This document shows positions 1 to 24,269 of a DNA stretch of 64,000 nt, piece by piece. Position 1 is the stretch's first letter. Each line of letters starts with the position of its first letter. Both the position numbers and the translations under genes were made by a program. The stretch covers positions 7,772-71,771 of the forward strand of contig JABDHI010000004.1 in assembly GCA_013285655.1 (NCBI GenBank), read 5' to 3'. The DNA comes from Bacteroidota bacterium (GTDB taxonomy: Bacteria > Bacteroidota > Bacteroidia > JABEUT01). The notes beneath the pieces were generated by a model. That model was given only the letters and a program-made list of their open reading frames with translations. It did not search any database and was not told where the DNA came from.

Positions 1-401
1 GATAATGCAATTGCGACATAATAAAAAGGATAAGAGTATTTGAAAACATACCGGCTAAGAAGCAGGTACATACCCATAAATGCAACCAAGTGCATTATGA
101 TAATATTAAGGTTATAAGCAACAAGTGGAGAGAAAATTGTGTCCAATAATATGCCGATATTTAACTGCGATTCCATAACTCCACGAGGTATCCCCCAACA
201 AATATTGGGAATTAGGGTATGGTTCGATGCAAATAACGTTCCGCTATCGCACAAAACTTTTGCCCATGCCACATTTGAATTAAGGTTATCATGAATGAGA
301 TAACGAGCATGTGTAGCAAAAAATAAATTTGGAGAAAGATATAGAAATAGAAAAAGCAATGCCGGAACGTATGGATGTTTTAATTTTTCTAGCAATGACA
401 T
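1..401 (-). CDS. membrane protein, 5' part only (ORF runs off the left edge of the window)
   Basis: Absent from the ORF track because it has no stop in the window. Hand translation from ATG 401-399 gives MSLLEKLKHPYVPALLFLFLYLSPNLFFATHARYLIHDNLNSNVAWAKVLCDSG... and stays open to base 1. An in-frame TAA lies just upstream at 431-429. Hydrophobic segments are present. Same strand as, and 69 nt downstream of, the XrtF-associated gene. Confidence 0.5.
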   Translation of the reverse strand, partial: MSLLEKLKHPYVPALLFLFLYLSPNLFFATHARYLIHDNLNSNVAWAKVLCDSGTLFASNHTLIPNICWGIPRGVMESQLNIGILLDTIFSPLVAYNLNIIIMHLVAFMGMYLLLSRYVFKYSYPFYYVAIAL

Positions 402-470
402 TATAAATGAGTTACAGGAGTCCCCCCCTTAATACTGAGATAAAATTAGCGTAAAAAAACAAACAACAGG

Positions 471-944
471 CTACTTGTTGTTTTTATAATAATAGACTCC
501 AAGCAATAGTACAATAGTAATTACCGGCGACTGTTGGAAGTGCGTGATGTTACGTGATATACTAAAGCCATGGATATAAAACTGCAAAAAAACTCTACCC
601 AAAATTATAAAAACCAAGGAAATAGTAAATAGTAAACCATAAAGACCCAAAGCAATGAAGGCGACTTGACGCGCGTTAAAAACAAGGTAGAGTGATGTTG
701 CTGAAACTAAAGCGTATATTAGAGTAAATGAAAGAGTGAGAATCCATTTTGCTGTTACCAATTGATTGTAGTTATAAGACTCAAACATATTCATAAAGCC
801 AGGGAGTGGAGGATAAGCCGACTTGTAATAAAGCAAAGAAGCCCTTTCGTTAATATTGAGAAATATAAAATTCCTAAAGTAACCCAGGAAAAAAAAACAG
901 AGTGAAAACAGAATCAAATAAAATAGTGTTCTGCCTTTTTTCAA
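471..944 (-). CDS. exosortase F system-associated membrane protein (small polytopic partner of XrtF)
   Basis: 157 aa with several hydrophobic helices. The start (TTG at 944) overlaps the xrtF stop, which suggests translational coupling. A small membrane protein directly after xrtF is the arrangement I recall as typical of XrtF loci. Confidence 0.6.
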   Translation of the reverse strand: MKKGRTLFYLILFSLCFFFLGYFRNFIFLNINERASLLYYKSAYPPLPGFMNMFESYNYNQLVTAKWILTLSFTLIYALVSATSLYLVFNARQVAFIALGLYGLLFTISLVFIILGRVFLQFYIHGFSISRNITHFQQSPVITIVLLLGVYYYKNNK

Positions 945-1483
945 TTGCTCTGTTTTAGAATTGGTGCTTTAGCTATTTTTTTTACCCACAAATACCACAT
1001 GCCAAAAATAGCTCCATAAACAAGTATGTTGAAGGTGTATGTATGATTAAAGTCGAGGATGCTTTTTGAACAGAAGCGTTGTATCATTGCAAGTACAACA
1101 ACCCTTAAAATATTCATACAAGTTATAATTATCCAGCCTAGTGGTATGTACCATAGTTTTTGTTTCCAATAACCAGGAAAAGCTATTATAAACCCCATAA
1201 AAATTGCGCATAATTCAATACTATCACAATTATCACCCATCCAAAGCCCACCGGCGCCATCAATGCCTATAAGGCGTGTTTTGTACTGAAATGTAACGAA
1301 CCCCAGTAAATTTAGTATTCTTCGTGCCGCATTCATAGTAAGCGCTACTACCCTTAAATCGATAATATCAATAGGGTGAATCCATATTTCATAAATCAAA
1401 TACCATGCCACATAAAATATTACAGCATTAAATAAAAAACGATAAAGAGGATTTTTGAATATACTTGAGAATGTGTATGGCAT
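941..1483 (-). CDS. xrtF: exosortase family protein XrtF
   Basis: 180-aa polytopic membrane protein. It carries exosortase-type catalytic motifs in the expected order: Cys in 'GDNCDSIELC', Arg in 'MNILRVVVLAMI', His in 'DFNHTYTF'. Short Bacteroidota-type length. Located next to a Wzc-like gene. Confidence 0.75.
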   Translation of the reverse strand: MPYTFSSIFKNPLYRFLFNAVIFYVAWYLIYEIWIHPIDIIDLRVVALTMNAARRILNLLGFVTFQYKTRLIGIDGAGGLWMGDNCDSIELCAIFMGFIIAFPGYWKQKLWYIPLGWIIITCMNILRVVVLAMIQRFCSKSILDFNHTYTFNILVYGAIFGMWYLWVKKIAKAPILKQSN

Positions 1484-1512
1484 TGGGTTAGAGATGTTAA
1501 GTTAATTCCAAA

Positions 1513-3888
1513 TTAACTATTGCCATAGGTGCCATACCCACCATAGCCTCCACCGTAACCATATCCGCCGTAATAACCATAGCGGTTATAGTAATATTTC
1601 GATTTTTTTCGTTTAACGTTATTTAATACAAAACCGAAATTAGTAATCTTATTAATGTGAACGGTCTCTTCTACATACCGTATCGCCTTCTTGTCAGCAA
1701 ATTTGGTGTTTAACACAAATAAATTAATATCTGACAATTTCATTAACATTAATGCATCCGAAATAAAACCTAAAGGAGGAGTGTCAATAATAACATAATC
1801 ATAATGAGCCTTTCCGTAGTTTATTACGTCCTTTACTTTATCCGACAATACAAGTTCAGATGAGTTAGGTGGGACAGGGCCACAAAGTATAACATCTAAA
1901 CCCTGAATTTGTGTGTTTGCAATTGTTTCTTCAATCGTGGTCTTTTTAATAATAACAGTTGTAAGACCTTTATCCGGCGATATGTTTAGTACTTTATGCA
2001 TACGGGGTTTATGCAAGTCAAACTCTAATAAAAGTACTTTTTTGTCAGCTTTTGCCAAAATAGCCGCAATGTTCATGGAACAGAACGTTTTTCCCTCTGA
2101 TGGGCCATTTGAAGTAAACAAGATAACCTTTTGACCTGGCTCGGTTATCATGTATTGTAAGTTAGTACGCAATGTTCTGAATGATTCGGTAAGCGGTGAC
2201 TTAGGATTGTCTTCAATAGCAAAAGATAATTCAGCAAGTAATGGGGCCGAAATGATTTCACCAATAACTGGTAAAGATGTATTGGCTTTGAGTTCTTGAA
2301 TACTTTCAATATGGTCAAAGAAAAATAACCTTATTGCAATAATTATACCAGCAATTATAAGTCCAATTAACATAAATTGGTAGTACATAGAAGTTCTTTC
2401 CGGAGCTACGATACCAATAGATCTGGCCTTTTCGAGTACTTTAGTTTGCGGAATAATTGCGGATTTTTCGATAATTGTACTTACTCGCTTTTCAAGTAAT
2501 AGGTCATATAATCTGGTGTTGATTTCTTCTTGACGTTGAATATTTGAGAGGCCACGTTTTATCTCAGGCATTGATCTAATAGTGCTAATGGAAGTGAAAT
2601 TAGATGAATCTGCCATCGCTATTTTATCATTAAGGGCTTTACGTAAGCTATTAATATAGGTTAGCAGTTGCTCAGATATGCGCTTTAATTCTTTTTTTCC
2701 ATCAATAACTACGGGATTTTGTTCAGTATTAGCGCTACTTGTAGCACCTAATATTCTCATCTGAATACCATATAACTGACTTGTTAACTGCGCTATAAAT
2801 GCATCATTGCCATTAAGATAAACCGAAGGAGGCATAAATTCAGGATCCTTGCCTTCTATTATGTATTGCTCTAGGTCATTCAAAGATGCTATTTGTTCCT
2901 GAATCTTTTTTTTGTCGGTCTTAGAGTTTAGATAATTATTCATTATTGACTGATCTTCCTGATTAATGTCAATAATGTTTCTCTTTATCTTATAATTTTC
3001 GATTTCCATTTCAATGGTATCAATAATATTCGAAATAAAATCCATTTCATTGTTAATGAAATTCATAGTGTTCTTATTTCGTTGATATTCTGTATTTACA
3101 GTAGACTCGATATATAGCTTGTCAAGTGTATCGAGGAAAGTAACGGCCCGGCTAGGTATAAGGTCGCTTAACGTTATTTGGAATATGTTGGTGTAGTCAA
3201 GATTTTTGACTGTTAATGAGCTTCTGAATTTATTAACCAGGGTAGGTGTGTTATGTATCTGGAACTCATAATTAATAAGCTTTACATCATCAATCGAATT
3301 TTGGTCAAGATCCATTGAGCTTGATACGTGCAATTTCATATCAGCGTTTATAAAATCATCACCAAAATTTCCATCTTGGCTATATTCATGCTCACCTTTT
3401 AAATAGCTTATTCTGAAATGATATTTGTCGAGTATAAGAAAGTTGATATATTTCTCATAAAAAGCCGGATTTAAATAGTATGGAGTGATTTTAAAAGGAA
3501 CCGAAAGATATACCTCTGTTTTTCTTAAGCGCCCTTCAATAAAATAAGAAACGTTAATGTTAAGTTTATCCACAACATTTTTTATAAGGTCATATGATTG
3601 TATAACCCTTATTTCGTTACTATTATCAACATAGCCTTGGTATGACCCATAATTACCTATAACGCTATTAGTATTAAACTGGTCGTTTGACTTAAAAAGT
3701 AATTGGGTTTGAGCAGCATAAATATCTGGCAGACGATATGCGTAAAAATAACCAATAGAATAGCCTATAGCCCCTAAGATTAACGCTATCCACCAATTTT
3801 TAAGGACAGTTTTAATTACCAATCTAATCTCAGGAGATTCGAGTATAGAGGAGTTGCTTTTTAAAGGTGGGGTAACTGTAGTTTCCAT
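1513..3888 (-). CDS. wzc: polysaccharide co-polymerase / tyrosine autokinase (Wzc/GumC-like, PCP2a type)
   Basis: 791 aa. N-terminal TM helix, long coiled periplasmic region, second TM helix. C-terminal kinase with Walker A 'SNGPSEGKTF', Walker A' 'LLLEFDLHKP' and Walker B 'YVIIDTPP'. Tyr-rich tail 'YYYNRYGYYGGYGYGGGYGGYGTYGNS'. Confidence 0.9.
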   Translation of the reverse strand: METTVTPPLKSNSSILESPEIRLVIKTVLKNWWIALILGAIGYSIGYFYAYRLPDIYAAQTQLLFKSNDQFNTNSVIGNYGSYQGYVDNSNEIRVIQSYDLIKNVVDKLNINVSYFIEGRLRKTEVYLSVPFKITPYYLNPAFYEKYINFLILDKYHFRISYLKGEHEYSQDGNFGDDFINADMKLHVSSSMDLDQNSIDDVKLINYEFQIHNTPTLVNKFRSSLTVKNLDYTNIFQITLSDLIPSRAVTFLDTLDKLYIESTVNTEYQRNKNTMNFINNEMDFISNIIDTIEMEIENYKIKRNIIDINQEDQSIMNNYLNSKTDKKKIQEQIASLNDLEQYIIEGKDPEFMPPSVYLNGNDAFIAQLTSQLYGIQMRILGATSSANTEQNPVVIDGKKELKRISEQLLTYINSLRKALNDKIAMADSSNFTSISTIRSMPEIKRGLSNIQRQEEINTRLYDLLLEKRVSTIIEKSAIIPQTKVLEKARSIGIVAPERTSMYYQFMLIGLIIAGIIIAIRLFFFDHIESIQELKANTSLPVIGEIISAPLLAELSFAIEDNPKSPLTESFRTLRTNLQYMITEPGQKVILFTSNGPSEGKTFCSMNIAAILAKADKKVLLLEFDLHKPRMHKVLNISPDKGLTTVIIKKTTIEETIANTQIQGLDVILCGPVPPNSSELVLSDKVKDVINYGKAHYDYVIIDTPPLGFISDALMLMKLSDINLFVLNTKFADKKAIRYVEETVHINKITNFGFVLNNVKRKKSKYYYNRYGYYGGYGYGGGYGGYGTYGNS

Positions 3889-3959
3889 TATATTATAAAA
3901 TAATGACCGCAGTTAATTGATAATTTGTTTGTATATGCACAAAAAATATGATGGTATAA

Positions 3960-4198
3960 TTAAGATTGTATATAACTGTTCTTTTTAGCGCGATATAAGA
4001 CATATGCGCCATAAAGTAAGCCTATGGCAATCAGTACAAAAGCTCCATTATTTAGCGGCATACCGCAAATGCATGGTGGTGGCCAGCAACAAGGATTTGG
4101 AGGCGGAGGCGGGGGGGGGGAGGCGGTTGAGAAAATAAAGGAGATGCACATATTATTATGCCAAATACCAATAAATTTCTTAAAAATTTCTTCTGCAT
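3960..4198 (-). pseudogene. small secreted Pro/Cys-rich protein with C-terminal helix + basic tail, split into two frames by a C10 tract (frameshifted, phase-variable, or sequencing error)
   Basis: ATG at 4198 opens MQKKFLRNLLVFGIIICASPLFSQPPPPP, a typical Sec signal peptide. After the C10 run this frame reads RLRLQILVAGHHHAFAVCR and stops at 4052. The tracked 63-aa ORF (3960-4151) is in another frame, has no signal peptide, and has no upstream start. A tract of 11 or 8 C would fuse the two into about 79 aa. Confidence 0.5.
4111..4120. repeat. G10/C10 homopolymeric tract inside the micro-gene
   Basis: Read directly: 'ggc gggggggggg agg'. It encodes part of a poly-Pro run on the minus strand. 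A G/C homopolymer of this length stands out in this AT-rich locus. Confidence 0.95.
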
Positions 4199-4216
4199 AG
4201 CATTTATTTCGTAATT

Positions 4217-4224
4217 CAAATATA
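4217..4224 (-). promoter_or_regulatory. candidate Bacteroidota -7 promoter box (TATATTTG) for the micro-gene / wzc string
   Basis: Reverse complement of 'caaatata' is TATATTTG, which matches the TAnnTTTG consensus. About 18 nt lie between the box and the ATG at 4198. Confidence 0.4.
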
Positions 4225-4283
4225 ACTAAAATTAGATAACAAATAGAGCTTTTGAAGCTATAAGCAACATTACGGTAAGGCCT

Positions 4284-5084
4284 CTATTCCTTAATACGAA
4301 TATACCGTTCCCAGAAATTTGGTTCGATTTTAGGCCATGCATGGCAACCAAAAGGTAGTTTGTCTGGTCCAGTAATAAATCTTGATGGACCGGCTTCAAT
4401 GGAAAACTTCAATGCTTCCTCAGGTGTAGGTATCTTATACCATTTGAAATTACTTGCCACAATTATACCCCAAAAAACATCTTCGTGCAAATAGTAATCA
4501 TTAAATAATATAAAGGTATTGTTTCTTACAGTCAGGTTGCTTAACAGGGTTAAAAAACTTCTTAAGTTTTTTTTTGAAAGGAACTCTTTATATAACGTCT
4601 TGGGTTTCCTTATATAAGAAAAGCTACGTAATACTTTTAAATGACTTTCTGTTTTTCGTAATGAAAACCCACCATTACCAATACCCATTATTTTAGCATC
4701 TGGTAGTGGATTTTTCCATCCTTCGAGCCATGGAGCTCCAATATAATCGTACCCTTTATTGCACCAATATTGTAATTCATCGCGAAAAACCCATGCGTCT
4801 AATTCATAAAATAGAATGTATTGGTATTGTCTGTATTTTTTGTACAAAAATGGGACAATTTTGAGCCTGCCAAACATAGTATAATTCGATTGCCATTTTG
4901 GGTCAATAAAGTCAAATTGGGCGTTGGGAGCAATTTTTAAATATTCATTTACATTTAGTCCTTTGGGGCATATTAGTCGAATAGGATGCTTATTTAATAC
5001 AGAAAAGCATTGTTTTAGCGATTCTTTTTCAGTTTCGGTAAGCAACTCTTTATGGGCTATTATTAATATGATACACTGAGGCAT
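4284..5084 (-). CDS. DUF5672-like protein (glycan-locus associated, putative glycosyltransferase-like)
   Basis: 266 aa. The motifs 'DYIGAPW' and 'GNGGFSLRK' match my recollection of the DUF5672 family. Sits in the glycan locus, 1 nt after the upstream gene. Confidence 0.5.
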   Translation of the reverse strand: MPQCIILIIAHKELLTETEKESLKQCFSVLNKHPIRLICPKGLNVNEYLKIAPNAQFDFIDPKWQSNYTMFGRLKIVPFLYKKYRQYQYILFYELDAWVFRDELQYWCNKGYDYIGAPWLEGWKNPLPDAKIMGIGNGGFSLRKTESHLKVLRSFSYIRKPKTLYKEFLSKKNLRSFLTLLSNLTVRNNTFILFNDYYLHEDVFWGIIVASNFKWYKIPTPEEALKFSIEAGPSRFITGPDKLPFGCHAWPKIEPNFWERYIRIKE

Positions 5085-5085
5085 G

Positions 5086-6348
5086 CTAAATAAACTTGCT
5101 TATAACTGTTAGCCTTTCGGCATTTTGATTTTTATAATTGTAAATCTCTGATATTCTTTTCTTCCCTTCTGTTGCTATCAATTTCATTCTCTCCTTGTCG
5201 CCTTTTAATACAAGTAACTTATCAACTATATCCTCATTAGTAGGCCTGATTTTTAAATAATGTAATCCGTCAATGAATATTTCAGGGCTTTCATTAAGCT
5301 CGTTGGTTAATAACATAACACAATTGTTAAACCCCCCAGCAAGTGAAGATCCAAGCGGAAATCCATCGAATGCACCCGGAGCGATAACATTTGGCTTATT
5401 AGGCGAAATTAAAATGTCTTTATCTTCAAAAAAAGTACTGAAAATTTCTTCACCAATGTGGCCATAAAACTTAACTCTATTTTCAATCTCAGTGTAAATA
5501 AGGTCTGCTTTTGTGAAATTGCCTACAATATGAAAATTAAAGGAGGGATTATCTATTAATGCAAGTACCGCTTCCTGAAAAACGTCAAAGCCTTTATCTT
5601 TCCCATAAGGCCTATATTTATGAGCAATAAATACCACGTCAATAGAAGTCTTATTACCTGAAAAATATTTTTTCTCAAGCAAAACAGTTTCCTTAGTGTC
5701 TTTAAATTGAAGTGGAATACCATAAATGAAAAAGATTTTCTCCTTAGGCATTTGTAGTATATTTGTCAAATAGTCATACGTAACTTTCTGGTCAGTAATT
5801 ACAAACTTACAGAGGGGATCTCCAATTGCTTCCTTTAATAAGGTATCACAAGCAGTATCATTAAGCTTAAACCCACCACCAGGATATAAGGTAAAGCCAA
5901 AAAATGCTTTGTTTTTTTTTAGCAATGTATAATACCTTTTTATATTGTTATAAAAAAGCAAGTAAACAAGCTTCGAATTAATTGAGGTACCTTTTCTTAT
6001 CGGTGTTAGCTTTTCTGCTAATAAAGGATATCCTTTTTGCAATTCTTCAAAATGTTGATAGTACTCCTTTTCTCCTTTAAGCAATGTATTGCTAAAGTCT
6101 ACTATAACCTTAGATTTAGGGTAAAGCCTGATTAAGTTTTCATACTCAAAATTACGCCAGGGAGTAAGTGGTATAGGTAATAGGTCATCAATAATTATGA
6201 GGTCATATTTTTTTCCTTTTATAAAAAGGAAGTGGTCTTCAAGTGATTTTTTTAATCGTGTAGGCATAGCTCGCCATACTTTATTGCTTATAAAGTAGAA
6301 TAGCTTTTGACGGAACGACTTGTGTTTCGAAAATTCTATATGCGTCAT
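5086..6348 (-). CDS. putative glycosyltransferase (GT-B-like C-terminal half)
   Basis: 420 aa. The C-terminal region 'GAFDGFPLGSSLAGGFNNCVMLLTNE' resembles the nucleotide-sugar-binding segment of GT1/GT4 enzymes. The N-terminal half is not recognised. The call is context-based. Confidence 0.4.
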   Translation of the reverse strand: MTHIEFSKHKSFRQKLFYFISNKVWRAMPTRLKKSLEDHFLFIKGKKYDLIIIDDLLPIPLTPWRNFEYENLIRLYPKSKVIVDFSNTLLKGEKEYYQHFEELQKGYPLLAEKLTPIRKGTSINSKLVYLLFYNNIKRYYTLLKKNKAFFGFTLYPGGGFKLNDTACDTLLKEAIGDPLCKFVITDQKVTYDYLTNILQMPKEKIFFIYGIPLQFKDTKETVLLEKKYFSGNKTSIDVVFIAHKYRPYGKDKGFDVFQEAVLALIDNPSFNFHIVGNFTKADLIYTEIENRVKFYGHIGEEIFSTFFEDKDILISPNKPNVIAPGAFDGFPLGSSLAGGFNNCVMLLTNELNESPEIFIDGLHYLKIRPTNEDIVDKLLVLKGDKERMKLIATEGKKRISEIYNYKNQNAERLTVISKFI

Positions 6349-6611
6349 TCCGCCCTTTAAAAAAAATTACTAAAAAAGTTTTAAGGTAGATAATTCAAAA
6401 ACAAAAGTAGTCATTTAAATATTTTATATGGGCCTTATGTGTCAAATGTATATATGGTTATAATCCTTAGATGTTCTGTTTGTTGTTTTTACTGTTATTA
6501 TTGCCTGTTATTTGGCTTTTTTTATAATTATATTAGGCTTACTGTAATGTTTTTTTTGTGATAATCTGCAAATAAGGCATTATCGGCTAGTGTAGATAGG
6601 TAGGTAATGGA

Positions 6612-6619
6612 TATATTTG
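6612..6619 (+). promoter_or_regulatory. candidate -7 promoter box (TATATTTG) for the plus-strand glycan operon
   Basis: Exact TAnnTTTG match 28 nt upstream of the wzm ATG (6647). It lies in the 298-bp divergent intergenic region. Confidence 0.4.
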
Positions 6620-6646
6620 CTGTGATTTTACGTATTTGATAGAATA

Positions 6647-7498
6647 ATGAAAGAAGAAGAAAAATGGGACCTTGTTATTAAACCCCGTTATAAGTGGTAT
6701 CAGATTGATTTGGCTTCGATTTGGCAGTACAAAGATTTGATCGGGTTATTGGTGCGCAGAGATTTTGTGGCGGCTTATAAGCAAACTATTTTTGGCCCGT
6801 TGTGGTATTTTGTACAGCCCATACTAACTTCGCTTACGTTTACATTTATCTTCGGTGGAATTGCTAAGATAAGTACTGATGGAGCGCCTCCAATGCTTTT
6901 TTACTTCGGTGGAATAACGATATGGACTTATTTTTCTGATTGTTTTACCCGTACTTCATCCACATTCACCTCTAACGCAGGAGTATTTGGTAAAGTGTAT
7001 TTCCCACGACTAATTATGCCTTTATCTGTTTTAATTTCTACTTTATTTAAGTTTGGTATACAGTTCCTTATTTTTATTGTCCTTTGGGTCTATTTCATGC
7101 ACACTACTACTAAGGTTCACCCTCAATGGGCCTACATGTTGCTTTTACCTATTTTAATTTTTATGATGGCTGGCTTGGGGCTTGGTTTTGGTATCTTAGT
7201 ATCATCATTAACAACAAAGTACCGAGATCTTATATTTTTAGTTGGTTTTGGGGTTCAGTTGCTAATGTGGGCAAGTTGCGTTGTCTTGCCGCTTTCCACA
7301 ATGCCGCCAAAAATAAAGGCGATAATGTTGTTAAACCCATTTACCTCAATTATCGAAACATTTAGGTTTATGTTTATTGGTAGTGGTCAATTTTTAGGTA
7401 TATGGCTGGTATATGGTTTTGGCTTTATGCTGCTAACTGTGTTTATTTCTGTCGTAATATTTAGTAGGGTTGAGAAAACTTTTATGGATACAGTATAA
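6647..7498 (+). CDS. wzm: ABC-2 type polysaccharide exporter permease (Wzm/TagG/KpsM family)
   Basis: 283 aa, about 6 TM helices. The N-terminal 'LVRRDFVAAYKQTIFGPLWYFVQPIL' is typical of O-antigen/teichoic acid ABC-2 permeases. Followed directly by the ATPase gene. Confidence 0.85.
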   Translation: MKEEEKWDLVIKPRYKWYQIDLASIWQYKDLIGLLVRRDFVAAYKQTIFGPLWYFVQPILTSLTFTFIFGGIAKISTDGAPPMLFYFGGITIWTYFSDCFTRTSSTFTSNAGVFGKVYFPRLIMPLSVLISTLFKFGIQFLIFIVLWVYFMHTTTKVHPQWAYMLLLPILIFMMAGLGLGFGILVSSLTTKYRDLIFLVGFGVQLLMWASCVVLPLSTMPPKIKAIMLLNPFTSIIETFRFMFIGSGQFLGIWLVYGFGFMLLTVFISVVIFSRVEKTFMDTV

Positions 7499-7499
7499 G

Positions 7500-8780
7500 A
7501 TGAGCCAAGAGATAATTAGAATAGAGAATGTAGGAAAGCAATATAGGCTCGGGCAGGTAGGTACGGGCACCTTTTCTCAGGATATAACCCGTTGGATACA
7601 TAAAATACGTGGAAAAGAAGATCCATACGTGCAAGTTATTGAGGATAATGATCCGTCTGCCAAAGGTGGCTCTGATTTGATCTGGGCTCTGAGAGATATA
7701 AGTTTTAGTGTTAATCGGGGCGAAGTATTGGGGATAGTAGGTAAAAATGGTGCAGGTAAGTCAACACTCCTAAAAATATTATCGCGTGTAACCAGCCCAA
7801 CCATAGGAGAAATAAAAGTTAAAGGTCGAATAGCCTCCCTCTTAGAAGTGGGCACTGGTTTTCATCCTGAGCTTTCTGGACGAGAGAATATTTTTTTAAA
7901 CGGCGCTATACTCGGTATGACCAAGCAGGAAATACGGACTAAATTTGAAGAAATAGTTGATTTTAGTGGAGTGGAGCGTTTTATAGATACACCTGTTAAG
8001 CGCTATAGCAGTGGTATGTATGTTAGGTTAGCATTTGCTGTTGCTGCACATTTGGAGCCTGAAATATTAATAGTAGATGAAGTACTTGCCGTAGGCGATG
8101 CTGAATTTCAGAGGAAATGTATGGGCAGGATGAAAGATGTGAGCGGCGAAGGGAGGACAGTAATATTTGTTAGTCATAATATGACGGCTGTAAATTCTCT
8201 TTGCACCGAGTGTATATATTTAAGAGGTGGACGAATTGTATCAAAAGGTAATACCCAGGACATTGTTAATCAATACCTTTCAACAGAAGAGACAAGTAGA
8301 GTTTATGTTGATTGGAAGAATGGAAATAATCCGGGAGATGATGTTGCTATTCTTCATTCTGTTAAGCTTATTGACGAGAATTTAAAAGGTATTTCATTTG
8401 CAACTATTGATAAAAAAATAGGTGTCGAGTATGTTTATGAGATATTAAAAGATGATTATGTCCTGTATCCAAATGTTCACCTATTTACCTCAAAACGAGA
8501 ACATGTATTTGTTGGGACAAATAGGAACGCGCCTAAATTTACTCCTCCAGGTGTATATAAAGTAATAATGTGGGTTCCCGAAAACCTGTTAAATGAGGGT
8601 GTCTATGTTATAGGTGCCGCACTTACATCACTAAATCCTACTGTAGTCCATTTTTGGGAATCAGAAGCCTTGGTGTTTGAGGTGATTGAAGATTTAAATA
8701 AGCGAGGTCATGATTATCACCACAGAATACCTGGTGTAATTAGGCCTATTTTAAATTGGGACATTCAAAAAATCAGTTAA
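7500..8780 (+). CDS. wzt: polysaccharide ABC exporter ATP-binding protein with C-terminal extension (Wzt-like)
   Basis: Walker A 'GKNGAGKST', signature 'YSSGM', Walker B 'ILIVDE', H-loop 'VSHN'. A beta-rich C-terminal extension follows the NBD. I prefer the ATG at 7500 (MSQEIIRIENVGKQY) over the tracked 7470 start, which overlaps wzm. Confidence 0.85.
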   Translation: MSQEIIRIENVGKQYRLGQVGTGTFSQDITRWIHKIRGKEDPYVQVIEDNDPSAKGGSDLIWALRDISFSVNRGEVLGIVGKNGAGKSTLLKILSRVTSPTIGEIKVKGRIASLLEVGTGFHPELSGRENIFLNGAILGMTKQEIRTKFEEIVDFSGVERFIDTPVKRYSSGMYVRLAFAVAAHLEPEILIVDEVLAVGDAEFQRKCMGRMKDVSGEGRTVIFVSHNMTAVNSLCTECIYLRGGRIVSKGNTQDIVNQYLSTEETSRVYVDWKNGNNPGDDVAILHSVKLIDENLKGISFATIDKKIGVEYVYEILKDDYVLYPNVHLFTSKREHVFVGTNRNAPKFTPPGVYKVIMWVPENLLNEGVYVIGAALTSLNPTVVHFWESEALVFEVIEDLNKRGHDYHHRIPGVIRPILNWDIQKIS

Positions 8781-8781
8781 T

Positions 8782-9564
8782 ATGAAGGTTGTGATTTTTG
8801 CAGGAGGAATTGGCTCCAGAATATCCGAAGAGTCTCATCTTAAGCCAAAGCCCATGATTGAGATAGGCGGGAAACCTATTTTATGGCATATAATGAAAAT
8901 ATACCAGGTTCAAGGATTTAATGATTTTGTTATATGTCTGGGGTATAAGGGATATATGATCAAAGAATATTTTATGAATTACTTCCTTCATAATTCTGAT
9001 ATTTCAATTGATATTAGCAATAATAAAGTTGAAGTGTTACAGGCCAGTGCCGAATCATTTAAGGTAACACTCGTTGATACAGGCATGTATACTCAAACAG
9101 CAGGCCGGCTTAAAAGGGTACAAGCCTATTTGAAGAATGAGCCATTTTTACTTACCTATGGCGATGGTCTTGCCGATGTAAGTATTAAAAAAACGATTGC
9201 TCTGCACGAAAAATCAGGGAAAGTGGCTACTGTTACAGCAATTCAACCAGCCGGACGCTTCGGGTCGTTAGAAATAGATGGTAAAACAAATAATGTGAAT
9301 AGCTTTATTGAGAAGCCTAGTGGAGATGGTTTCTGGGTTAATGGTGGTTACTTTGTTTTAGAGCCTGGTGTGTTTAAATATTTGCCTGACAATGCCGATA
9401 GTATTATGTGGGAAGATGAGCCTTTATATGCTTTATCAAAAGCATCCCAGTTAAGTGCGTATAAACATACAGGGTTCTGGAAATGCATGGATGCTATGCG
9501 TGATAGGACAGAGTTGGAGGAGTTATGGGAAAGTGGCAATGCCAAATGGAAGCTTTGGAAATGA
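8782..9564 (+). CDS. rfbF: glucose-1-phosphate cytidylyltransferase
   Basis: 260 aa. 'MKVVIFAGGIGSRISEESHLKPKPMIEIGGKPILWHIMKIY' and 'GGYFVLEP...FWKCMDAMRD' are characteristic of RfbF/DdhA. Confidence 0.85.
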   Translation: MKVVIFAGGIGSRISEESHLKPKPMIEIGGKPILWHIMKIYQVQGFNDFVICLGYKGYMIKEYFMNYFLHNSDISIDISNNKVEVLQASAESFKVTLVDTGMYTQTAGRLKRVQAYLKNEPFLLTYGDGLADVSIKKTIALHEKSGKVATVTAIQPAGRFGSLEIDGKTNNVNSFIEKPSGDGFWVNGGYFVLEPGVFKYLPDNADSIMWEDEPLYALSKASQLSAYKHTGFWKCMDAMRDRTELEELWESGNAKWKLWK

Positions 9565-10640
9565 GGCAGCTCTTCAATTCGATATACAAAAATAAAACTG
9601 TTCTTATAACGGGCGATACCGGTTTTAAAGGGTCGTGGCTTTCGTTATGGTTAATGCAGATGGGAGCGACTGTTATTGGTTATTCTATTGATGAAGGGAC
9701 AAAATCATCACATCATAAATTACTGAAACAAAAATATAAGAGTTATAGGGGTGATATTGGTGATCTAAAAAAACTTAATGCGGTTATAAAAAAACATAAG
9801 CCCCAAATAGTGTTCCACCTTGCAGCGCAATCATTAGTAATTGAATCGTACAAGAATCCGGTTGAAACGTACAGAACGAATGTAATAGGGACCTTAAATG
9901 TATTGGAAGCTTCGAGGAAAAGTGGTTCGGTTAAGGCAATAGTGAACGTTACTACTGATAAGGTATACGAGAACAATGAAACAACTAAAGCCTATAAAGA
10001 AACTGATCCATTAGGAGGGTTCGATATGTATAGCTCATCTAAGGCTTGTGTTGAAATTTTATCGGCTTCTTTTAAAAGAGCTTTTTTCAGTAAAGGAAAT
10101 ATTTTAGTAGCAACTGCACGTGCAGGTAATGTTATTGGTGGGGGTGATTGGGGAGAGAACAGGCTTATACCAGACCTGATAAAAGCTGCCTCTAAAAAGA
10201 AAAAGGCCCTCATTCGTAACCCTAAATCAGTAAGGCCTTGGCAATTTGTCCTGGAGCCTCTCTCAGGGTATTTATTGCTAGGACAAAGACTTTTGGAAGG
10301 GAAGAAAGAATATGCTGATGCATGGAATTTTGGCCCCAATAAAAAGGATTGTCTGTCAGTAATTGAGATTTTGATCTTGATGAAAAAAGGATGGGGGAAA
10401 ATTTCTCCTATACTTGCTGATCGTAAAACAGGAGAACACGAAGCAGCTATCTTAATGCTTGATCACTCGAAAGCTCATAGGCAGTTGAAGTGGCAGCCTG
10501 TATGGGGGATAGATAAAGCTGTTATGAGAACTTCAGCTTGGTATAAAGCATTTTATGCATCTGGTACTTTGTTGTCGTCTGCAAATCTCATTGAATACAT
10601 TGCCGATGCAAAACATAAAAAAATAATCTGGGCAAGGTGA
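9561..10640 (+). CDS. rfbG: CDP-glucose 4,6-dehydratase
   Basis: Extended SDR with 'VLITGDTGFKGSWL', 'TTDKVYEN' and 'YSSSKA'. The start ATG at 9561 overlaps the rfbF stop (ATGA). The tracked 9525 start is probably too long. Confidence 0.85.
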   Translation: MRQLFNSIYKNKTVLITGDTGFKGSWLSLWLMQMGATVIGYSIDEGTKSSHHKLLKQKYKSYRGDIGDLKKLNAVIKKHKPQIVFHLAAQSLVIESYKNPVETYRTNVIGTLNVLEASRKSGSVKAIVNVTTDKVYENNETTKAYKETDPLGGFDMYSSSKACVEILSASFKRAFFSKGNILVATARAGNVIGGGDWGENRLIPDLIKAASKKKKALIRNPKSVRPWQFVLEPLSGYLLLGQRLLEGKKEYADAWNFGPNKKDCLSVIEILILMKKGWGKISPILADRKTGEHEAAILMLDHSKAHRQLKWQPVWGIDKAVMRTSAWYKAFYASGTLLSSANLIEYIADAKHKKIIWAR

Positions 10641-11176
10641 GATTTACAGAAATATACCTGAAAGATGTTTATATTATTGATAGCAATAGTATAAGCGATG
10701 ATCGTGGTATGTTCTCTCGCGTGTTTTGCAAAAAGGAATTCTCCTCGATAGGGCATACAAAGGAATTCGTGCAGTTTAATCATTCAGTTAATAATGTTGC
10801 AGGCACTGTTAGAGGGATGCATTTCCAAAAAGCACCCCATGGCGAAATGAAACTTATAAGATGTATTAAAGGTGCTGCTTTTGATGTTGTAGTTGATGTT
10901 CGTCCTGAATCAAGCACCTATCTAAAATGGTATGGAGAAATATTAAGTGCTGAAAACAGGAAAAGTATATACATACCCGAAGGATTTGCTCACGGTTTTC
11001 AAACTCTTGAAGCTAATACGGAATTACTCTATCATCATACTGAATATTATGCTCCTGAATTTGAAAGTGGGTTAAATGCTTTAGATTTAGAAATTGGAAT
11101 AAAGTGGCCGATCCGGGTTTCTATGATCTCGGAGAAGGATAAGAATATAGGAATGATTAAAGATAAGCAGAGATAA
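10637..11176 (+). CDS. NDP-4-keto-6-deoxyhexose 3,5-(or 5-)epimerase, RfbC/RmlC cupin family
   Basis: 179 aa. RmlC-type motifs: 'DDRGMFSRVF', 'VRGMHFQ', 'KLIRCIKGAAFDVVVDVR', 'IPEGFAHGFQTL', 'IKWP'. The GTG start overlaps the rfbG stop. Confidence 0.8.
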   Translation: MRFTEIYLKDVYIIDSNSISDDRGMFSRVFCKKEFSSIGHTKEFVQFNHSVNNVAGTVRGMHFQKAPHGEMKLIRCIKGAAFDVVVDVRPESSTYLKWYGEILSAENRKSIYIPEGFAHGFQTLEANTELLYHHTEYYAPEFESGLNALDLEIGIKWPIRVSMISEKDKNIGMIKDKQR

Positions 11177-11177
11177 T

Positions 11178-12404
11178 ATGAATTGCAGGTTTTGTAATGC
11201 GGTATTAAAGACTGTATTTATTGATCTAGGTGAAGCACCTCCGTCTAATTCATTCTTAAGCGCTGCTGATGTTTCTAAACCGGAAGCAAAATACCCGTTG
11301 AAGGTATTTGTTTGTGAAAGTTGTTTCTTGGTTCAAATAGCTGAGTTTAAGAAAGCGATTGAGATATTTAGTAATGAGTATGCTTATTTTTCATCGTATT
11401 CCACTACGTGGCTTGCTCATGTTAAAAAGTATGCCGATGAAATGATTGAAAGATTCGGCTTTGGTGCTAAGTCGAAAGTAGTGGAAATTGCCAGTAACGA
11501 TGGTTATTTATTACAATACTTTAAGCACAAGAATATTCCTGTGTTAGGTATTGAACCAACAGGGAATACAGCAAAAGTGGCTATAGAAAAAAGTATAAAT
11601 ACAATAGTTGATTTTTTTGGGGTTAAACTGGCAAAGGAACTGATAGAAAAGGGAATAAAAGCAGATTTGTTATTAGGTAATAATGTACTTGCCCATGTGC
11701 CTGATATTAATGATTTTGTAGAAGGGTTGAAGGTATTGCTGGCTGATAATGGGGTGATTACTATGGAGTTTCCTCATTTAGCTCAATTGGTAGCTAATAA
11801 TCAGTTCGATACCATTTATCATGAGCATTTTTCGTATTTGTCATTCAGTGTGGTTTGTAAAATATTTGCTAAACATGATTTGGCGATGTTCGATGTAGAT
11901 GAGTTGTCTACACATGGAGGATCCTTGCGGATTTATGCAAAGCACAAAGGTGATTCATCAAAACAAATAGGACAAAGGGTGCAAGTGTTATTGGATAAAG
12001 AAGATAAGTTAGGAGTAAATTCGGTAGCTTATTATAAAGATTTTCAAAAAAGGACTGAAGCAATTAAGGCGATTTTCGTTAAGTTTTTAAACGATTGTAA
12101 AATAAAGGGAAAAAGGGTGGTGGCATATGGTGCCGCTGCTAAAGGAAATACGCTATTAAATTATTGTGGTGTTACCAGTGAGTCTATTTCACTTGTAGTA
12201 GATGCTTCACCCCATAAGCAAGGTAAGTATTTACCAGGCAGCAAAATTCCAGTGGTTTCGGAACAAGAATTAAAGGATTTAAGGCCTGATTTTGTAATAA
12301 TACTTCCATGGAATATAAAGGAAGAGATAATTAATCAATTGTCGTATATTCGGGGCTGGAATGGGCAATTTGTTGTCGCTATTCCTGAATTTCAGTTGCT
12401 ATGA
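11178..12404 (+). CDS. NDP-hexose C-methyltransferase (TylCIII-like, SAM-dependent, N-terminal zinc ribbon)
   Basis: 408 aa. N-terminal 'CRFC...CESC' ribbon, a SAM-binding region 'VVEIASNDGYLL', and a C-terminal C-methyltransferase-type domain. Confidence 0.7.
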   Translation: MNCRFCNAVLKTVFIDLGEAPPSNSFLSAADVSKPEAKYPLKVFVCESCFLVQIAEFKKAIEIFSNEYAYFSSYSTTWLAHVKKYADEMIERFGFGAKSKVVEIASNDGYLLQYFKHKNIPVLGIEPTGNTAKVAIEKSINTIVDFFGVKLAKELIEKGIKADLLLGNNVLAHVPDINDFVEGLKVLLADNGVITMEFPHLAQLVANNQFDTIYHEHFSYLSFSVVCKIFAKHDLAMFDVDELSTHGGSLRIYAKHKGDSSKQIGQRVQVLLDKEDKLGVNSVAYYKDFQKRTEAIKAIFVKFLNDCKIKGKRVVAYGAAAKGNTLLNYCGVTSESISLVVDASPHKQGKYLPGSKIPVVSEQELKDLRPDFVIILPWNIKEEIINQLSYIRGWNGQFVVAIPEFQLL

Positions 12405-13522
12405 AAGATATATTGAGCAAAAAAATACCTATCAATAAGCCTTCCATTACTGACCTTGAAATTTCTTATGTAAATGATGCAATAAGGAACGGATGGGGTG
12501 AGAAGTGCTATGAGTACATCCATAAGTTTGAAAAGGCCTTTTCTGGCTATCTGGGGTCAAAACATGCCCTTGCTACGGCCTCTTGCACTGGTGCCATCCA
12601 TTTAGCTTTAATGGCATTAGGTATAAAATCAGGCGACGAGGTAATTATACCTGAAATTACGTGGATTGCTAGTGTTGAACCTGTGTTATATATTGGCGCA
12701 AAACCGGTTTTTGTTGATGTGTTAAAGGATACATGGTGTATTGACCCTCAAAAAATACGTGAGTCAATTACATCAAAAACTAAAGCAATAATTGTGGTTC
12801 ACGTTTATGGCAATATTTGCGATATGGACGAGATTATGAAGATTGCGAAGGAGTATAATCTAATAGTTATTGAGGATGCAGCTGAAGGCTTAGGCTCAGT
12901 GTATAAAGGAAATAAGTTAGGTAGTATAGGTCATGCCGGTGTTTTTTCATTTCATGGCACCAAAACTTTATCAACAGGTGAAGGCGGAATGCTAGTTACC
13001 AATGATGCTGCCATATACGAGCGTGCTAAAATACTAAATGACCATGGACGAAACCCCAAAGATGGTAAGACATTTTGGATGAAAGAGTATGGCTATAAAT
13101 ACAAAATATCTAATTTACAGGCCGCTATGGGCTTGGCTCAAACGGAAAGAATAAAAGACCTTGTTGAGAAGAAAAGACAGATTTATTCATGGTACGCTGA
13201 TATACTAAAGGGTATTCAATGTAAAATGAACCCTGAACATACCGATACTTTAAATAGCTATTGGTTGCCTACAGTTGTATTTGATAAGGTTTTGAATTTT
13301 GATAGAGAAGCTTTTTTTACTTTTATGAAAGCGAATAACGTTGACAGCCGCCCTTTTTTTTACCCGTTATCATCTCTTCCAATGTTTAAGTCTGTTGAGT
13401 CTAATAAGGTGGCTTATGATATTTATGAAAGGGGAATTAATCTGCCCAGTTATCATGATATGTCCGAAGATACAGTTAAAGAGGTATGCCAGTTTATTAT
13501 GCATTTTTTAAGAGGGGTGTAG
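12401..13522 (+). CDS. DegT/DnrJ/EryC1/StrS-family PLP-dependent sugar aminotransferase
   Basis: 373 aa. 'SCTGAIHLALMALGI', 'IEDAAEGLGS' and 'SFHGTKTLSTGEGGM'. The Lys is retained, so this is an aminotransferase rather than an E1-type dehydrase. ATGA overlap with the upstream gene. Confidence 0.85.
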   Translation: MKDILSKKIPINKPSITDLEISYVNDAIRNGWGEKCYEYIHKFEKAFSGYLGSKHALATASCTGAIHLALMALGIKSGDEVIIPEITWIASVEPVLYIGAKPVFVDVLKDTWCIDPQKIRESITSKTKAIIVVHVYGNICDMDEIMKIAKEYNLIVIEDAAEGLGSVYKGNKLGSIGHAGVFSFHGTKTLSTGEGGMLVTNDAAIYERAKILNDHGRNPKDGKTFWMKEYGYKYKISNLQAAMGLAQTERIKDLVEKKRQIYSWYADILKGIQCKMNPEHTDTLNSYWLPTVVFDKVLNFDREAFFTFMKANNVDSRPFFYPLSSLPMFKSVESNKVAYDIYERGINLPSYHDMSEDTVKEVCQFIMHFLRGV

Positions 13523-13533
13523 ATATATTGAAG

Positions 13534-14553
13534 ATGGAGCAAGAAAATAGTAACTCATCAAAAGTAATTTCTGACTATAAATGTGTGGTTTGCGGAGAGG
13601 CTGAAATGGAGTATGTGTTGCATGTACCCAATGTAAACTTTTCAAAGAAAATAACCCAATTCGATATTATTAGGTGCAAGCATTGCGGGCTGGCGAGTAT
13701 GTACCCGTTCCCTAAAAAGGAAGATATTGAAGAGATATATAATACCGAGAATGTTTTTTCGAAGGATATTTCAGATACTACTAATAAAAAAAAGTGGGGT
13801 GCTTCATTTTTTGAACCTGCTTATGCACGATATGGAACTTATTACCATTATATAGCAAAAAAATGCGTAAATCTTTCAGGAAAAAGGCCTGAAGACTTAC
13901 GAATACTGGATGTTGGATGCAGCACAGGCAGGTTGCTGAAAGAATTTAACAGAATTGTGCCTAAAGCAGATATTCAGGGGATTGAAATTGACCCGGATGC
14001 TAAGAATAAGGCATTTAATGAGGTAAAGGATAGAATAACTATTGGTAATTTTCTAGAGCAGGAGTATAAAGACAAGTTTGATATAATAACCTTTTGTTTT
14101 GTGGTTGAGCATCTACCTAATGTTGATGATTACATTAAAAAAGCAGAAAAGCTATTGAATGAGGATGGCATACTCTTTTACTCGAGTCCTGATATAGGTT
14201 CGCGCAAGGCCTTACAATTGAAGAGCAAATGGAGATTAATAAATGATCCTATAAATAAGCACGGGCACGTTATTTGGTTCAATAAAAAATCAGCCTGCTA
14301 TCTGGCAAATAAAAATAATCTTGAGGTTGTTCATTATAAGAACAGGGGTGAATTTATTTATCAGTTACCCATTTTCTTACAAAAAGCAATGAAATTTCTC
14401 TTTGGTTCAGTTCAATCGCCTAACGGGGAAGTAAGAGTTATTAAAAATTATCAATTGCGAATGATGTATGCTTTGCTTTTTGATGCTTTGCTACCTGAAA
14501 TATTTAGCTGGGGAGATTCTTTTTACTTATTTGCCAAAAAGAAACCGCAATGA
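13534..14553 (+). CDS. class I SAM-dependent methyltransferase with N-terminal Cys4 ribbon
   Basis: 'CVVCG...CKHCG' ribbon and SAM motif I 'ILDVGCSTGRLL'. ATG at 13534 preferred over the tracked 13486. Confidence 0.75.
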   Translation: MEQENSNSSKVISDYKCVVCGEAEMEYVLHVPNVNFSKKITQFDIIRCKHCGLASMYPFPKKEDIEEIYNTENVFSKDISDTTNKKKWGASFFEPAYARYGTYYHYIAKKCVNLSGKRPEDLRILDVGCSTGRLLKEFNRIVPKADIQGIEIDPDAKNKAFNEVKDRITIGNFLEQEYKDKFDIITFCFVVEHLPNVDDYIKKAEKLLNEDGILFYSSPDIGSRKALQLKSKWRLINDPINKHGHVIWFNKKSACYLANKNNLEVVHYKNRGEFIYQLPIFLQKAMKFLFGSVQSPNGEVRVIKNYQLRMMYALLFDALLPEIFSWGDSFYLFAKKKPQ

Positions 14554-15737
14554 AAACAAAGGCCTTAATATTAGGTGGTGGAGTATGGCAACTAGATATT
14601 ATTAAAAAGGCCAAATTAATGGGCTTTCATGTTATAGTAGCCGATATTTCATCAAGTTCTCCAGGGAAGGATATTGCGGATGAATTTTTATGTATCGATA
14701 CAAATGATAAAGAAGGTTTGTTAATGTATGCTAAAGAAAAGAGTGTGAAAATTGTTATAGGCGAGCAAACTGACAGGGTTGTACCAATAGCAGCATATTT
14801 AAACGAACAATTGAGCTTAAACGCAGGTATTAAGCCTGAGATTGCCAAAAGGTTTACTGATAAGTTTTTAATGCATGAGGTATTAAAAGAAAATGGCATT
14901 AGAGTTCATGAATATCAAAAAATATCTACTATACAAGAAGCTAAATTGTTTGGAGAAAAATATGGATATCCTTTAATAATTAAACCTATATCCTCCCAAT
15001 CTTCTCTAGGGGTTTTTAAGATAGATTCCCCTGACCAGTTAGGAGAGCATCTTGCTCAAACTATGAAGTATTCTGACGATGGTTGTGTATTAGTGGAGCA
15101 ATTTGTTAGGGGGACTGAATTAACTGTTGAAGGTATTAGTATTGATAGTATTGCTTATCCACTGGCTGTTTCAGAAAAGGAACATTTTAAGTATAATGAA
15201 TGCGTGGCTAAGAAGATTATTTATCCTCCAGCCTATAACGATGTTCAAATTGCCGGAATATCTGGTTATATAAAGACTGTAGTTGAGACATTGGGATTGG
15301 TTAACGGTATATTTCATGCAGAACTTAAGTATTTTAATGGAGAGGCCTTTTTGTTGGAAGTAGCTGCCCGGGGAGGAGGACATAAAATAGCATCGATAAT
15401 AGCACCTTTTGTAAGTGGAGTTGATATATACGAATGCTTTATTAAGAGCGTGAATAAGGAAAAAGTAAATATACCTGTTGGCATAAATAGATCAGCCATG
15501 TTGGGTTTTTTTGATTTAAAACCCGGCCGGGTTAAAAAGATTAACGGACTTGAAGAAATAAGGCAAAATAAAAACGTGTACGAGGTTAAGCTAAGATTTA
15601 AAGAAGGCGATGAAATTAAAGAGGCCTCAGATGATACAAATAGGCTCGGGTATTATATTTTAATGGCTAAGGAGCGGGATGAAGTAATTGAATTAGATAG
15701 GTTTGTAAATTCGACCTTACAAATTGAGTATTTTTAG
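14550..15737 (+). CDS. ATP-grasp domain carboxylate-amine ligase
   Basis: 395 aa. 'YPLIIKPISSQSSLGV', 'VLVEQFVRGTELTVEG' and 'FHAELKYFNGEAFLLEVAARGGG' are typical ATP-grasp elements. ATGA overlap with the upstream gene. Confidence 0.75.
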   Translation: MKTKALILGGGVWQLDIIKKAKLMGFHVIVADISSSSPGKDIADEFLCIDTNDKEGLLMYAKEKSVKIVIGEQTDRVVPIAAYLNEQLSLNAGIKPEIAKRFTDKFLMHEVLKENGIRVHEYQKISTIQEAKLFGEKYGYPLIIKPISSQSSLGVFKIDSPDQLGEHLAQTMKYSDDGCVLVEQFVRGTELTVEGISIDSIAYPLAVSEKEHFKYNECVAKKIIYPPAYNDVQIAGISGYIKTVVETLGLVNGIFHAELKYFNGEAFLLEVAARGGGHKIASIIAPFVSGVDIYECFIKSVNKEKVNIPVGINRSAMLGFFDLKPGRVKKINGLEEIRQNKNVYEVKLRFKEGDEIKEASDDTNRLGYYILMAKERDEVIELDRFVNSTLQIEYF

Positions 15738-15744
15738 AACGTAT

Positions 15745-16479
15745 ATGAAATATTTCGACTCGCACATACATATAACAGAACCTTCGCTCGAAGGTATTGA
15801 AGCACTGTTAAAACATATGGATGACCAAAAAAATATGGTAGGTGGGGTATTAATATTAAATACCATGGAAGAGGTAGAGGTTGTTTCGATGAACTTGAAT
15901 AAAATCCCTGATAATTTGGTTATTGTCCCTTATTATAATATGCCGGATAATTATCCCGAGCGCATAAAACAATCAAAATGGGTAAAAATCCATTCACGTA
16001 TATCTAGGCTAACTGTTTCTGACATACCAGGTGTAATAAGCTTATTAAAATCCAAAGGCGACTCTATAGCAGGTTTTATAGTGGATTCTTTTCCATGGGG
16101 TACAGGAATTGAGTATAATATTAGTCTTCCATTAACTATTAAACTGGCAACGGAGTTTCCCGATAAGAGTGTTTTAGTTGCTCATGGTGGGGGGTACGAA
16201 TCATGGCAGTTTAGAGCGCATGCCGGTGGGTTAAAGAATGTTTTTTTTGACTTTGCTATCAGCACCAAGTATTATGAAGATACTGAATATATGAAACCAT
16301 TAGCTAAATATTTAAAACATAGCCCCGAAAGAGTTGTGTTTGGTACTGACTGGCCATTTGGAGAAGCAAAACAGCATATAAAAGAGTACCAAAAGATGGC
16401 CGATATAGCTTTAATGAAGCAAGAAGATTTAGAAAGGATAATGCTGGAGAATTCGCGTAAATTATGGAACTTAAAGTAA
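15745..16479 (+). CDS. amidohydrolase-family metal-dependent hydrolase (TIM barrel)
   Basis: N-terminal 'FDSHIHI' metal-binding HxH motif. Later 'VAHGGG' and 'FGTDWPF'. ATG at 15745 preferred over the tracked TTG at 15724. Confidence 0.65.
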   Translation: MKYFDSHIHITEPSLEGIEALLKHMDDQKNMVGGVLILNTMEEVEVVSMNLNKIPDNLVIVPYYNMPDNYPERIKQSKWVKIHSRISRLTVSDIPGVISLLKSKGDSIAGFIVDSFPWGTGIEYNISLPLTIKLATEFPDKSVLVAHGGGYESWQFRAHAGGLKNVFFDFAISTKYYEDTEYMKPLAKYLKHSPERVVFGTDWPFGEAKQHIKEYQKMADIALMKQEDLERIMLENSRKLWNLK

Positions 16480-16504
16480 CTGAAGATTATATTTTTTAAG
16501 ATCA

Positions 16505-17179: not shown

Positions 17180-17202
17180 TAATAATAAATTTGTAATAAA
17201 TA

Positions 17203-18003: not shown

Positions 18004-18050
18004 TTCGAATAAATATTTAATTTATAATGTTCATTTAATATAATTTGGAT

Positions 18051-24264: not shown

Positions 24265-24269
24265 TAAGG

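Follow-up and report, generated by a model that had tools for sequence, protein, structure and literature searches.

We analyzed a stretch of 64,000 nucleotides (nt) from a Bacteroidota bacterium (assembly GCA_013285655.1, contig JABDHI010000004.1; hereafter the window), in which a minus-strand mini-gene is followed by genes for a Wzc-like kinase, an exosortase and a small membrane partner. This segment (471–4224, minus strand) very probably represents a divergent copy of the Bacteroidota XrtX/PID-CTERM module, in which, by analogy with related systems, XrtX would cleave the mini-gene product and transfer it to an acceptor. It is a divergent, frameshifted member of a system that is catalogued and experimentally untouched; the pairing of XrtX with PID-CTERM is already listed in curated family databases and is not new, and these databases were the only place in which we found knowledge of it.

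Judged by its family scores, the window enzyme is XrtX, not XrtF. On the NCBIfam models it reaches 170.6 bits with the XrtX profile NF046081, which meets the cutoff of 170 but lies near the line, and 58.8 bits with the XrtF profile TIGR04128, which falls short of the cutoff of 90; XrtF is its third-best NCBIfam match, just after XrtY. These values are typical of the family, as eight relatives score 158–196 bits on the XrtX model and 58–89 bits on the XrtF model. One relative with 66% identity to the window enzyme (P0009) is named "exosortase X" by NCBI, while the JGI pipeline calls several relatives (P0005, P0010, P0022 and others) "exosortase family protein XrtF"; this clash of labels for a single family accounts for the assignment to XrtF in an earlier note on this DNA. 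The Cys/Arg/His motifs that the same note had described do stand, Cys86, Arg127 and His147 being invariant across 19 related sequences, but the XrtF identity does not, given the scores above and a partner whose family is XrtX-associated. A sequence search of the PDB with the XrtX profile recovered no solved structure of a relative.

The evidence that ties the mini-gene to this enzyme comes from its recurrence across genomes. The earlier note had proposed a scan for small open reading frames (ORFs) near the exosortase gene, and we ran it with relatives of XrtX: a genome scan confirmed 290 stretches encoding such relatives, and the best 80 of the 290, all from Bacteroidota metagenome-assembled genomes, were taken as loci. 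Genomes labeled Sediminibacterium, Arcticibacter, Chitinophaga and Salibacteraceae are among the relatives recovered. An intact mini-gene is present in 76 of these 80 XrtX loci (68, six and two found by successive searches), and one further locus ends at a contig edge. In 70 of the 80 copies on the same strand as xrtX, fewer than 150 nt separate the end of the mini-gene from xrtX, which lies 3′ of it; the median gap is 35.5 nt. We then have the distribution of the tail itself: a hidden Markov model (HMM) of the C-terminal tail, run on all ORFs in six frames from the window and 89 loci (1.37 Mb), gave exactly one strong match in 84 of the 90 sources, always in an ORF of at most 113 amino acids (aa), and within this sequence no large protein near xrtX matched. 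A regular-expression scan of the window likewise returned the mini-gene tail as the only credible candidate. Looked up in reverse, three of three mini-proteins drawn from a profile search were encoded directly 5′ of a gene of ~180 aa and a small second gene; the ~180-aa gene was labeled as a Pfam exosortase in two of the three, and a divergent Wzc adjoined in all three. In three loci (L049, L067 and L069) there was no mini-gene in the 450 nt 5′ of xrtX and no tail HMM match anywhere in the locus.

Because of this recurrence, the single tail per locus and the reverse look-ups, the cargo inference is well supported as a genomic association, and the sequence comparisons support the mini-gene product as a genomically linked, presumptive substrate of XrtX. 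The proposal in the earlier note that the micro-gene product is an exosortase substrate is therefore retained in this form, for the neighboring enzyme, but that enzyme is XrtX and not XrtF. As a separate observation, the mini-gene lies on the opposite strand and 3′ of xrtX in three loci (L015, 11114–11353; L022, 11120–11359; L060, 16090–16356; all minus strand).

As assembled, the mini-gene of the window is divided between two ORFs. The first, 4052–4219 on the minus strand, holds the signal peptide and first prolines, MQKKFLRNLLVFGIIICASPLFSQPPPPP, and is out of frame thereafter; the second, 3960–4151 on the minus strand, reads ...PPPPPPPNPCCWPPPCICGMPLNNG-AFVLIAIGLLYGAYVLY-RAKKNSYIQS, its product also being given as ...PPPPPPPNPCCWPPPCICGMPLNNGAFVLIAIGLLYGAYVLYRAKKNSYIQS. 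Fusing the two needs one added base (C11) or a −1 shift by ribosome or polymerase, and yields a precursor that opens with the signal peptide MQKKFLRNLLVFGIIICASPLFS, continues as Q-(P)n-NPCCWPPPCICG and closes with the sorting signal. The signal peptide is of Sec type with predicted cleavage at LFS/Q in the window precursor, and the mature part comprises ~25 residues rich in Pro and Cys. The same peptide is encoded in one intact frame in L093, L168, L082, L083 and L086; L093 is the closest relative among the matches listed, with a Wzc 89% and an XrtX 80% identical to those of the window, and has nine prolines in mixed codons. Because the closest relatives encode the same peptide in a single intact frame, the fused reading, which the earlier note had put forward, is correct, and the tail of motif, helix and basic cluster that the note described after a signal peptide and a short Pro/Cys-rich part is indeed present in the fused product. 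The window does not contain the substrate gene as an intact ORF, owing to the break at C10, which bears on function in this genome and not on family membership.

Other readings of the mini-gene were considered and set aside. The second ORF alone (63 aa, ATG at 4151) was rejected as a stand-alone product, since it lacks the signal peptide that all homologs encode in frame. Lipidation at Cys17, which would make the product a lipoprotein, was rejected because Cys17 is not conserved, unlike the ...[FA]-[SA]-Q cleavage context. A metagenome scan for the exact peptide CCWPPPCICGMPLNNG gave no match and no same-species contig. With a looser metagenome pattern, 77 of 80 loci among the matches listed were off-frame noise from GC-rich genomes; the real matches among those listed were L093, L118 and L168.

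The frame is lost in a run of ten cytosines within the poly-proline codons, which is the only G/C homopolymer of at least eight nt in the 64 kb, the next longest being a single run of seven. A C11 run would give ten prolines in frame, and a C8 run would give nine, as in L093; the proline tract is 29 nt long in the window versus 27 nt in L093. One explanation is that a base was lost in sequencing or assembly at this longest homopolymer; the genome itself would then have C11 and an ordinary, intact gene. We regard this as quite possible: the loss of one base from a G/C run of 10–11 nt is a classic error of consensus sequences, the gene is intact in all ten close relatives examined, and past the break the reading frame is fully preserved and free of other lesions. 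Sixteen A/T runs of 8–9 nt nevertheless lie inside long intact ORFs of the window without frame breaks, which argues that the assembly is not generally prone to homopolymer errors. Moreover, the longest G/C run in 68 homologous mini-genes is six, the relatives using mixed proline codons; as none of the 68 exceeds this length, the tract is a lineage-specific novelty that would slip in vivo. On balance, and from a single sequence, we lean slightly toward a real off state, in a tract prone to slippage, over an assembly error.

A more specific scenario, which we consider doubtful, is that C10 is a genuine slipped-strand switch, the poly-proline stretch having been recoded to a hypermutable C tract so that the single XrtX substrate peptide would flip on and off. 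The nearest parallel is found in the simple-sequence contingency loci of Neisseria, Haemophilus and Campylobacter surface genes, in which poly-G/C tracts play this part; like these, the window has a 10-nt G/C run in a surface-related coding sequence in which one base toggles the frame, but unlike them its tract is absent from all relatives and is known here from one sequence, with no length variation observed. We know of no established case of simple-sequence switching in Bacteroidota polysaccharide loci.

The tail belongs to a family with a consistent layout: a signal peptide (often ending ...[FA]-[SA]-Q), 10–25 Pro- or Gly-rich residues, a Cys pair, P-[ILV]-[DN]-G-G, a helix with conserved Gly residues, and a cluster of basic residues, for example GGKK. 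The Cys pair, which reads CWPPPC or CGGPFPPC, directly precedes the sorting motif, and both of its columns are invariant in the 38 tails that we aligned; the tail is more conserved than the "mature" part of the mini-protein. The position of Gln just past the predicted cleavage site agrees with the Bacteroidetes Q-rule (PMC5837995), and signal-peptide cleavage probably falls before this residue; the peptide left after both cleavages would be only ~15–30 residues long. The window tail scores 39.4 bits on the tail HMM built here, with the qualification that it is one of the 38 sequences of that model. Eight of nine relatives pass the cutoff of 26 bits of NF046080 ("PID-CTERM protein-sorting domain"), and the window tail is clearly homologous to those of L082 (26.6), L003 (29.4), L004 (32.7) and L005 (39.1). 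Homologous mini-proteins are annotated with PF28310 (PID_CTERM), a label that we took from precomputed annotations only, as the Pfam version that we scanned did not include PF28310 and canonical mini-proteins score nothing there. A profile of the 38 tails retrieved 3104 proteins, and the best 120 of these 3104 are 66–79 aa long and all carry PF28310; the profile included the Cys motif, which biases this result to mini-proteins and leaves room for large PID-CTERM proteins elsewhere in the genomes. NCBI names some relatives "PID-CTERM protein-sorting domain-containing protein". With the tail already in NCBIfam and Pfam and relatives so named, the suggestion in the earlier note of a previously undescribed cargo class had to be abandoned.

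A second class of mini-protein was also noted (L006–L009, L012–L014, L023, L027, L070, L072, L074 and others), with (GM)n repeats after the signal peptide, CGGPFPPC, P-[IV]-P-L-D and an end of ...KKNPA. This class is distinct from the CWPPPC-IPIDGG class.

In the mechanism that we consider most plausible, the precursor would be exported by Sec and its tail would anchor the peptide in the inner membrane. XrtX, with Cys86, Arg127 and His147, would then cleave at or near the P-L-N (P-x-[DN]) motif and hand the short peptide on to an acceptor, which may be a lipid or the polymer handled by the adjacent Wzc. This scheme is modeled on archaeosortase A (ArtA)/PGF-CTERM and exosortase/PEP-CTERM; the observed part consists of the catalytic set, one adjacent substrate-like gene per locus and the frequent linkage to Wzc. 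One may postulate an alternative scenario without cleavage, in which the mini-protein would remain in the membrane as a stable single-pass subunit, or act as a regulator, of an XrtX–partner–Wzc complex, with the conserved C-terminal helix as its functional part. This would be consistent with the tail and not the "mature" part being most conserved, with a mature part too short to fold as a domain, and with a single copy per locus that shares an operon with the enzyme; our literature search on PID-CTERM and XrtX also gave no processing experiment. The tail nevertheless has the motif, helix and basic-cluster layout that defines sortase-type signals, the adjoining enzyme has an intact Cys/Arg/His set, and the signal peptide together with the invariant Cys pair argues that the N-terminal part is exported and matters. 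We therefore consider an uncleaved subunit improbable. The weakest alternative, which takes the enzyme for an orphan XrtF and the micro-peptide for its cargo, of a class not described before, can draw on the JGI labels, on the rank of the XrtF model just behind XrtY and on the fact that XrtF substrates are still unknown (PMC10936215), but we count it as already refuted by the HMM scores, with a partner that matches the XrtX-associated family and no other at a meaningful E-value and a tail already modeled as NF046080 and PF28310, and we give it almost no weight.

Several points count against assignment to a processed XrtX/PID-CTERM module. The tail search spanned only 10 kb either side of xrtX and the 64-kb window, and the mini-gene is not translatable as assembled. 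The window tail scores only 16.4–16.5 bits on NF046080, whose cutoff is 26, and carries Asn at the position of the Asp in the family motif. The partner is below its curated cutoff as well, with 43.3 bits (E = 3e-11) on the NCBIfam model NF046082 against a cutoff of 75, although the match covers profile positions 5–147 of 147. Finally, literature searches for PID-CTERM and XrtX found nothing relevant, and thus no experiment on either.

Low scores are also seen among relatives. The window falls in a divergent subclade (L001–L005, L081–L086 and L093) whose XrtX proteins are 54–80% identical to its own. Where the 5′ flank is present, the order in this subclade is mini-gene, Wzc, XrtX and partner on one strand, and DUF5672 lies directly 5′ of the mini-gene in the closest members. 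A co-directional Wzc between mini-gene and xrtX occurs in eight of 80 same-strand loci, all of this subclade. Its motif has Asn for Asp (PLN in the window, not PID), and the closest members carry four cysteines, PCCWPPPC-x-C. Scores of subclade tails on NF046080 range from no match up to 39 bits, and scored partners reach 30–43 bits on NF046082 (30–36 bits for the subclade relatives), which indicates that the curated cutoffs miss much of the subclade. On two public contigs (L083/L084, 5207–5588) the intact mini-gene was not called as a gene.

The membrane partner is linked to the enzyme in a manner conserved among relatives. Its TTG start overlaps the TGA stop of xrtX by 4 nt, reading TTGA, in agreement with the coupling to the exosortase gene that the earlier note had claimed, and both its position and this overlap are conserved in relatives. 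At E-values up to 1 the partner matched only NF046082 and, at chance level, EpsB_2, with no match to the exosortase F system-associated protein family. Matches to the partner were found by tblastn in 57 of 86 loci, mostly directly 3′ of xrtX.

Comparison with known systems places the module nearest to PID-CTERM/XrtX/XrtX-associated protein (NF046080, NF046081, NF046082; PF28310). All three genes are present, the enzyme passes the XrtX model, and the window precursor runs, as in that system, from a signal peptide through a short stretch rich in Pro or Gly and a Cys pair to a P-x-[DN] motif, after which come a helix and a basic cluster; the linkage to Wzc is shared as well. It differs in having PLN instead of PID, four cysteines (CC...C.C) instead of two, an inserted Wzc, a frameshift, and a tail and partner below curated cutoffs. 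PEP-CTERM/exosortase A (EpsH) has a comparable tripartite signal, a Cys/Arg/His enzyme and an association with exopolysaccharide loci and tyrosine kinases, and the window Wzc weakly matches the XrtA-associated kinase model. XrtA is, however, a larger enzyme with ~8 transmembrane segments that serves many PEP-CTERM proteins per genome, whereas the 180-aa enzyme of the window has one dedicated mini-substrate within the searched stretches. Archaeosortase A belongs to the same enzyme superfamily (weak matches), and the protein that it cleaves is then attached to lipid; unlike the window enzyme it is archaeal, with large S-layer glycoprotein substrates and a different motif. Cleavage of PGF-CTERM by ArtA is stated in a preprint (10.1101/2023.06.07.544157). 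XrtF (TIGR04128; Flavobacterium johnsoniae Fjoh_1448/1449) is likewise a small Bacteroidota exosortase (~175–180 aa) with a small membrane protein, and the F. johnsoniae pair is needed for biofilm formation and surface colonization (PMC10936215), but it belongs to another HMM family and no sorting signal is known for it, in contrast to XrtX with its adjacent signal.

Table 1 Features of the XrtX/PID-CTERM-type segment. Coordinates are positions in the 64-kb window.
Feature	Position	Strand	Basis or remark
Mini-gene (PID-CTERM-type precursor, ~79 aa if fused)	3960–4198	−	One base out of frame as assembled; two ORFs, intact homologs, NF046080 and tail HMM scores
G10/C10 homopolymer in poly-proline codons, site of frame break	4111–4120		G10 on + strand
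Cysteine motif CCWPPPCIC	4065–4091	−	Alignment of 38 tails
Tripartite C-terminal sorting signal (MPLNNG, helix AFVLIAIGLLYGAYVLY, basic cluster RAKK)	3963–4061	−	NF046080, tail HMM
TATATTTG, match to −7 promoter box TAnnTTTG	4217–4224	−	Begins 26 nt 5′ of mini-gene ATG
Wzc-like polysaccharide co-polymerase/tyrosine autokinase, 791 aa	1513–3888	−	NCBIfam, Pfam
Exosortase X (XrtX), 180 aa; Cys86 (1226–1228), Arg127 (1103–1105), His147 (1043–1045)	941–1483	−	NF046081
XrtX-associated membrane protein, 157 aa, divergent	471–944	−	NF046082, below cutoff
DUF5672 gene	4284–5084	−	5′ of mini-gene
Weak GT1-like (glycosyltransferase-like) gene	5086–6348	−	5′ of DUF5672

The order on the minus strand is GT1-like gene, DUF5672, mini-gene, Wzc-like gene, exosortase and membrane partner, with the Wzc-like gene 29 nt 5′ of xrtX (Table 1). 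The exosortase, partner, Wzc-like kinase and micro-gene all lie where the earlier note had placed them, but, contrary to the note, the same-strand string does not begin with the micro-gene, since the DUF5672 and glycosyltransferase-like genes stand 5′ of it on the same strand. The mini-gene nonetheless has its own conserved promoter-like box. A TAnnTTTG box, which we take to be the Bacteroidota −7 promoter element, lies 25–27 nt 5′ of the mini-gene ATG in the window and in nine of another 13 loci that we sampled, and L093 and L168 have it too (carriers: L082, L083, L086, L002–L005, L012, L026, L093 and L168); the background is 0.45 per kb per strand. Conservation of this box indicates that the mini-gene probably starts a transcript, and the sequence suggests a dedicated Bacteroidota-type promoter with a short leader. 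A scan of 300–6700 for sigma-70 promoters and terminators gave 27 matches versus 31.5 in shuffled sequence, the sigma-70 scan being uninformative for Bacteroidota.

Two further observations concern the neighboring wzc. Between the mini-gene stop and the Wzc start, short stretches at ~3936–3950 and 3898–3913 (minus strand) recur in the subclade, a CATATTTTGTGCA-like stretch in the window, L082 and L086 and a AACTGCGGTnATTATT-like stretch in the window and L083; these could be an internal promoter or regulatory element for wzc. The Wzc-like protein ends (1513–1600, minus strand) in a long Tyr/Gly-rich tail, YYYNRYGYYGGYGYGGGYGGYGTYGNS, and L001 is similar; the usual tyrosine cluster of such kinases is shorter and less Gly-rich.

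The wider setting is one of polysaccharide synthesis. Among 48 loci with a full 5′ flank, 38 have a Wzc-like gene within 10 kb. In the window, the XrtX module stands at the edge of a ~26-kb polysaccharide-synthesis locus, which contains, at 6647–26480, a divergently transcribed ABC-2 permease and ATPase, then rhamnose-type sugar-nucleotide genes, a C-methyltransferase, a DegT aminotransferase and an ATP-grasp ligase, as well as several methyltransferases, GT2, GT11 and GT4 genes and an asparagine synthase.

For the family, these results amount to a correction of the catalogue entry: the enzyme is XrtX and the cargo a PID-CTERM mini-protein, both already modeled, and the substrate of the divergent subclade will be missed by automated annotation. 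Across the searched loci the system consists of one enzyme and one substrate with a mature part of ~15–30 residues, almost always near Wzc, and since mass spectrometry would have only one small peptide to trace, the question of what an exosortase uses as acceptor becomes unusually tractable. Were the C10 tract a true switch, any modification of the envelope or the Wzc-linked polymer by the peptide would turn on and off along with it, and the window would hold a simple-sequence phase switch on an exosortase substrate in a Bacteroidota polysaccharide locus.

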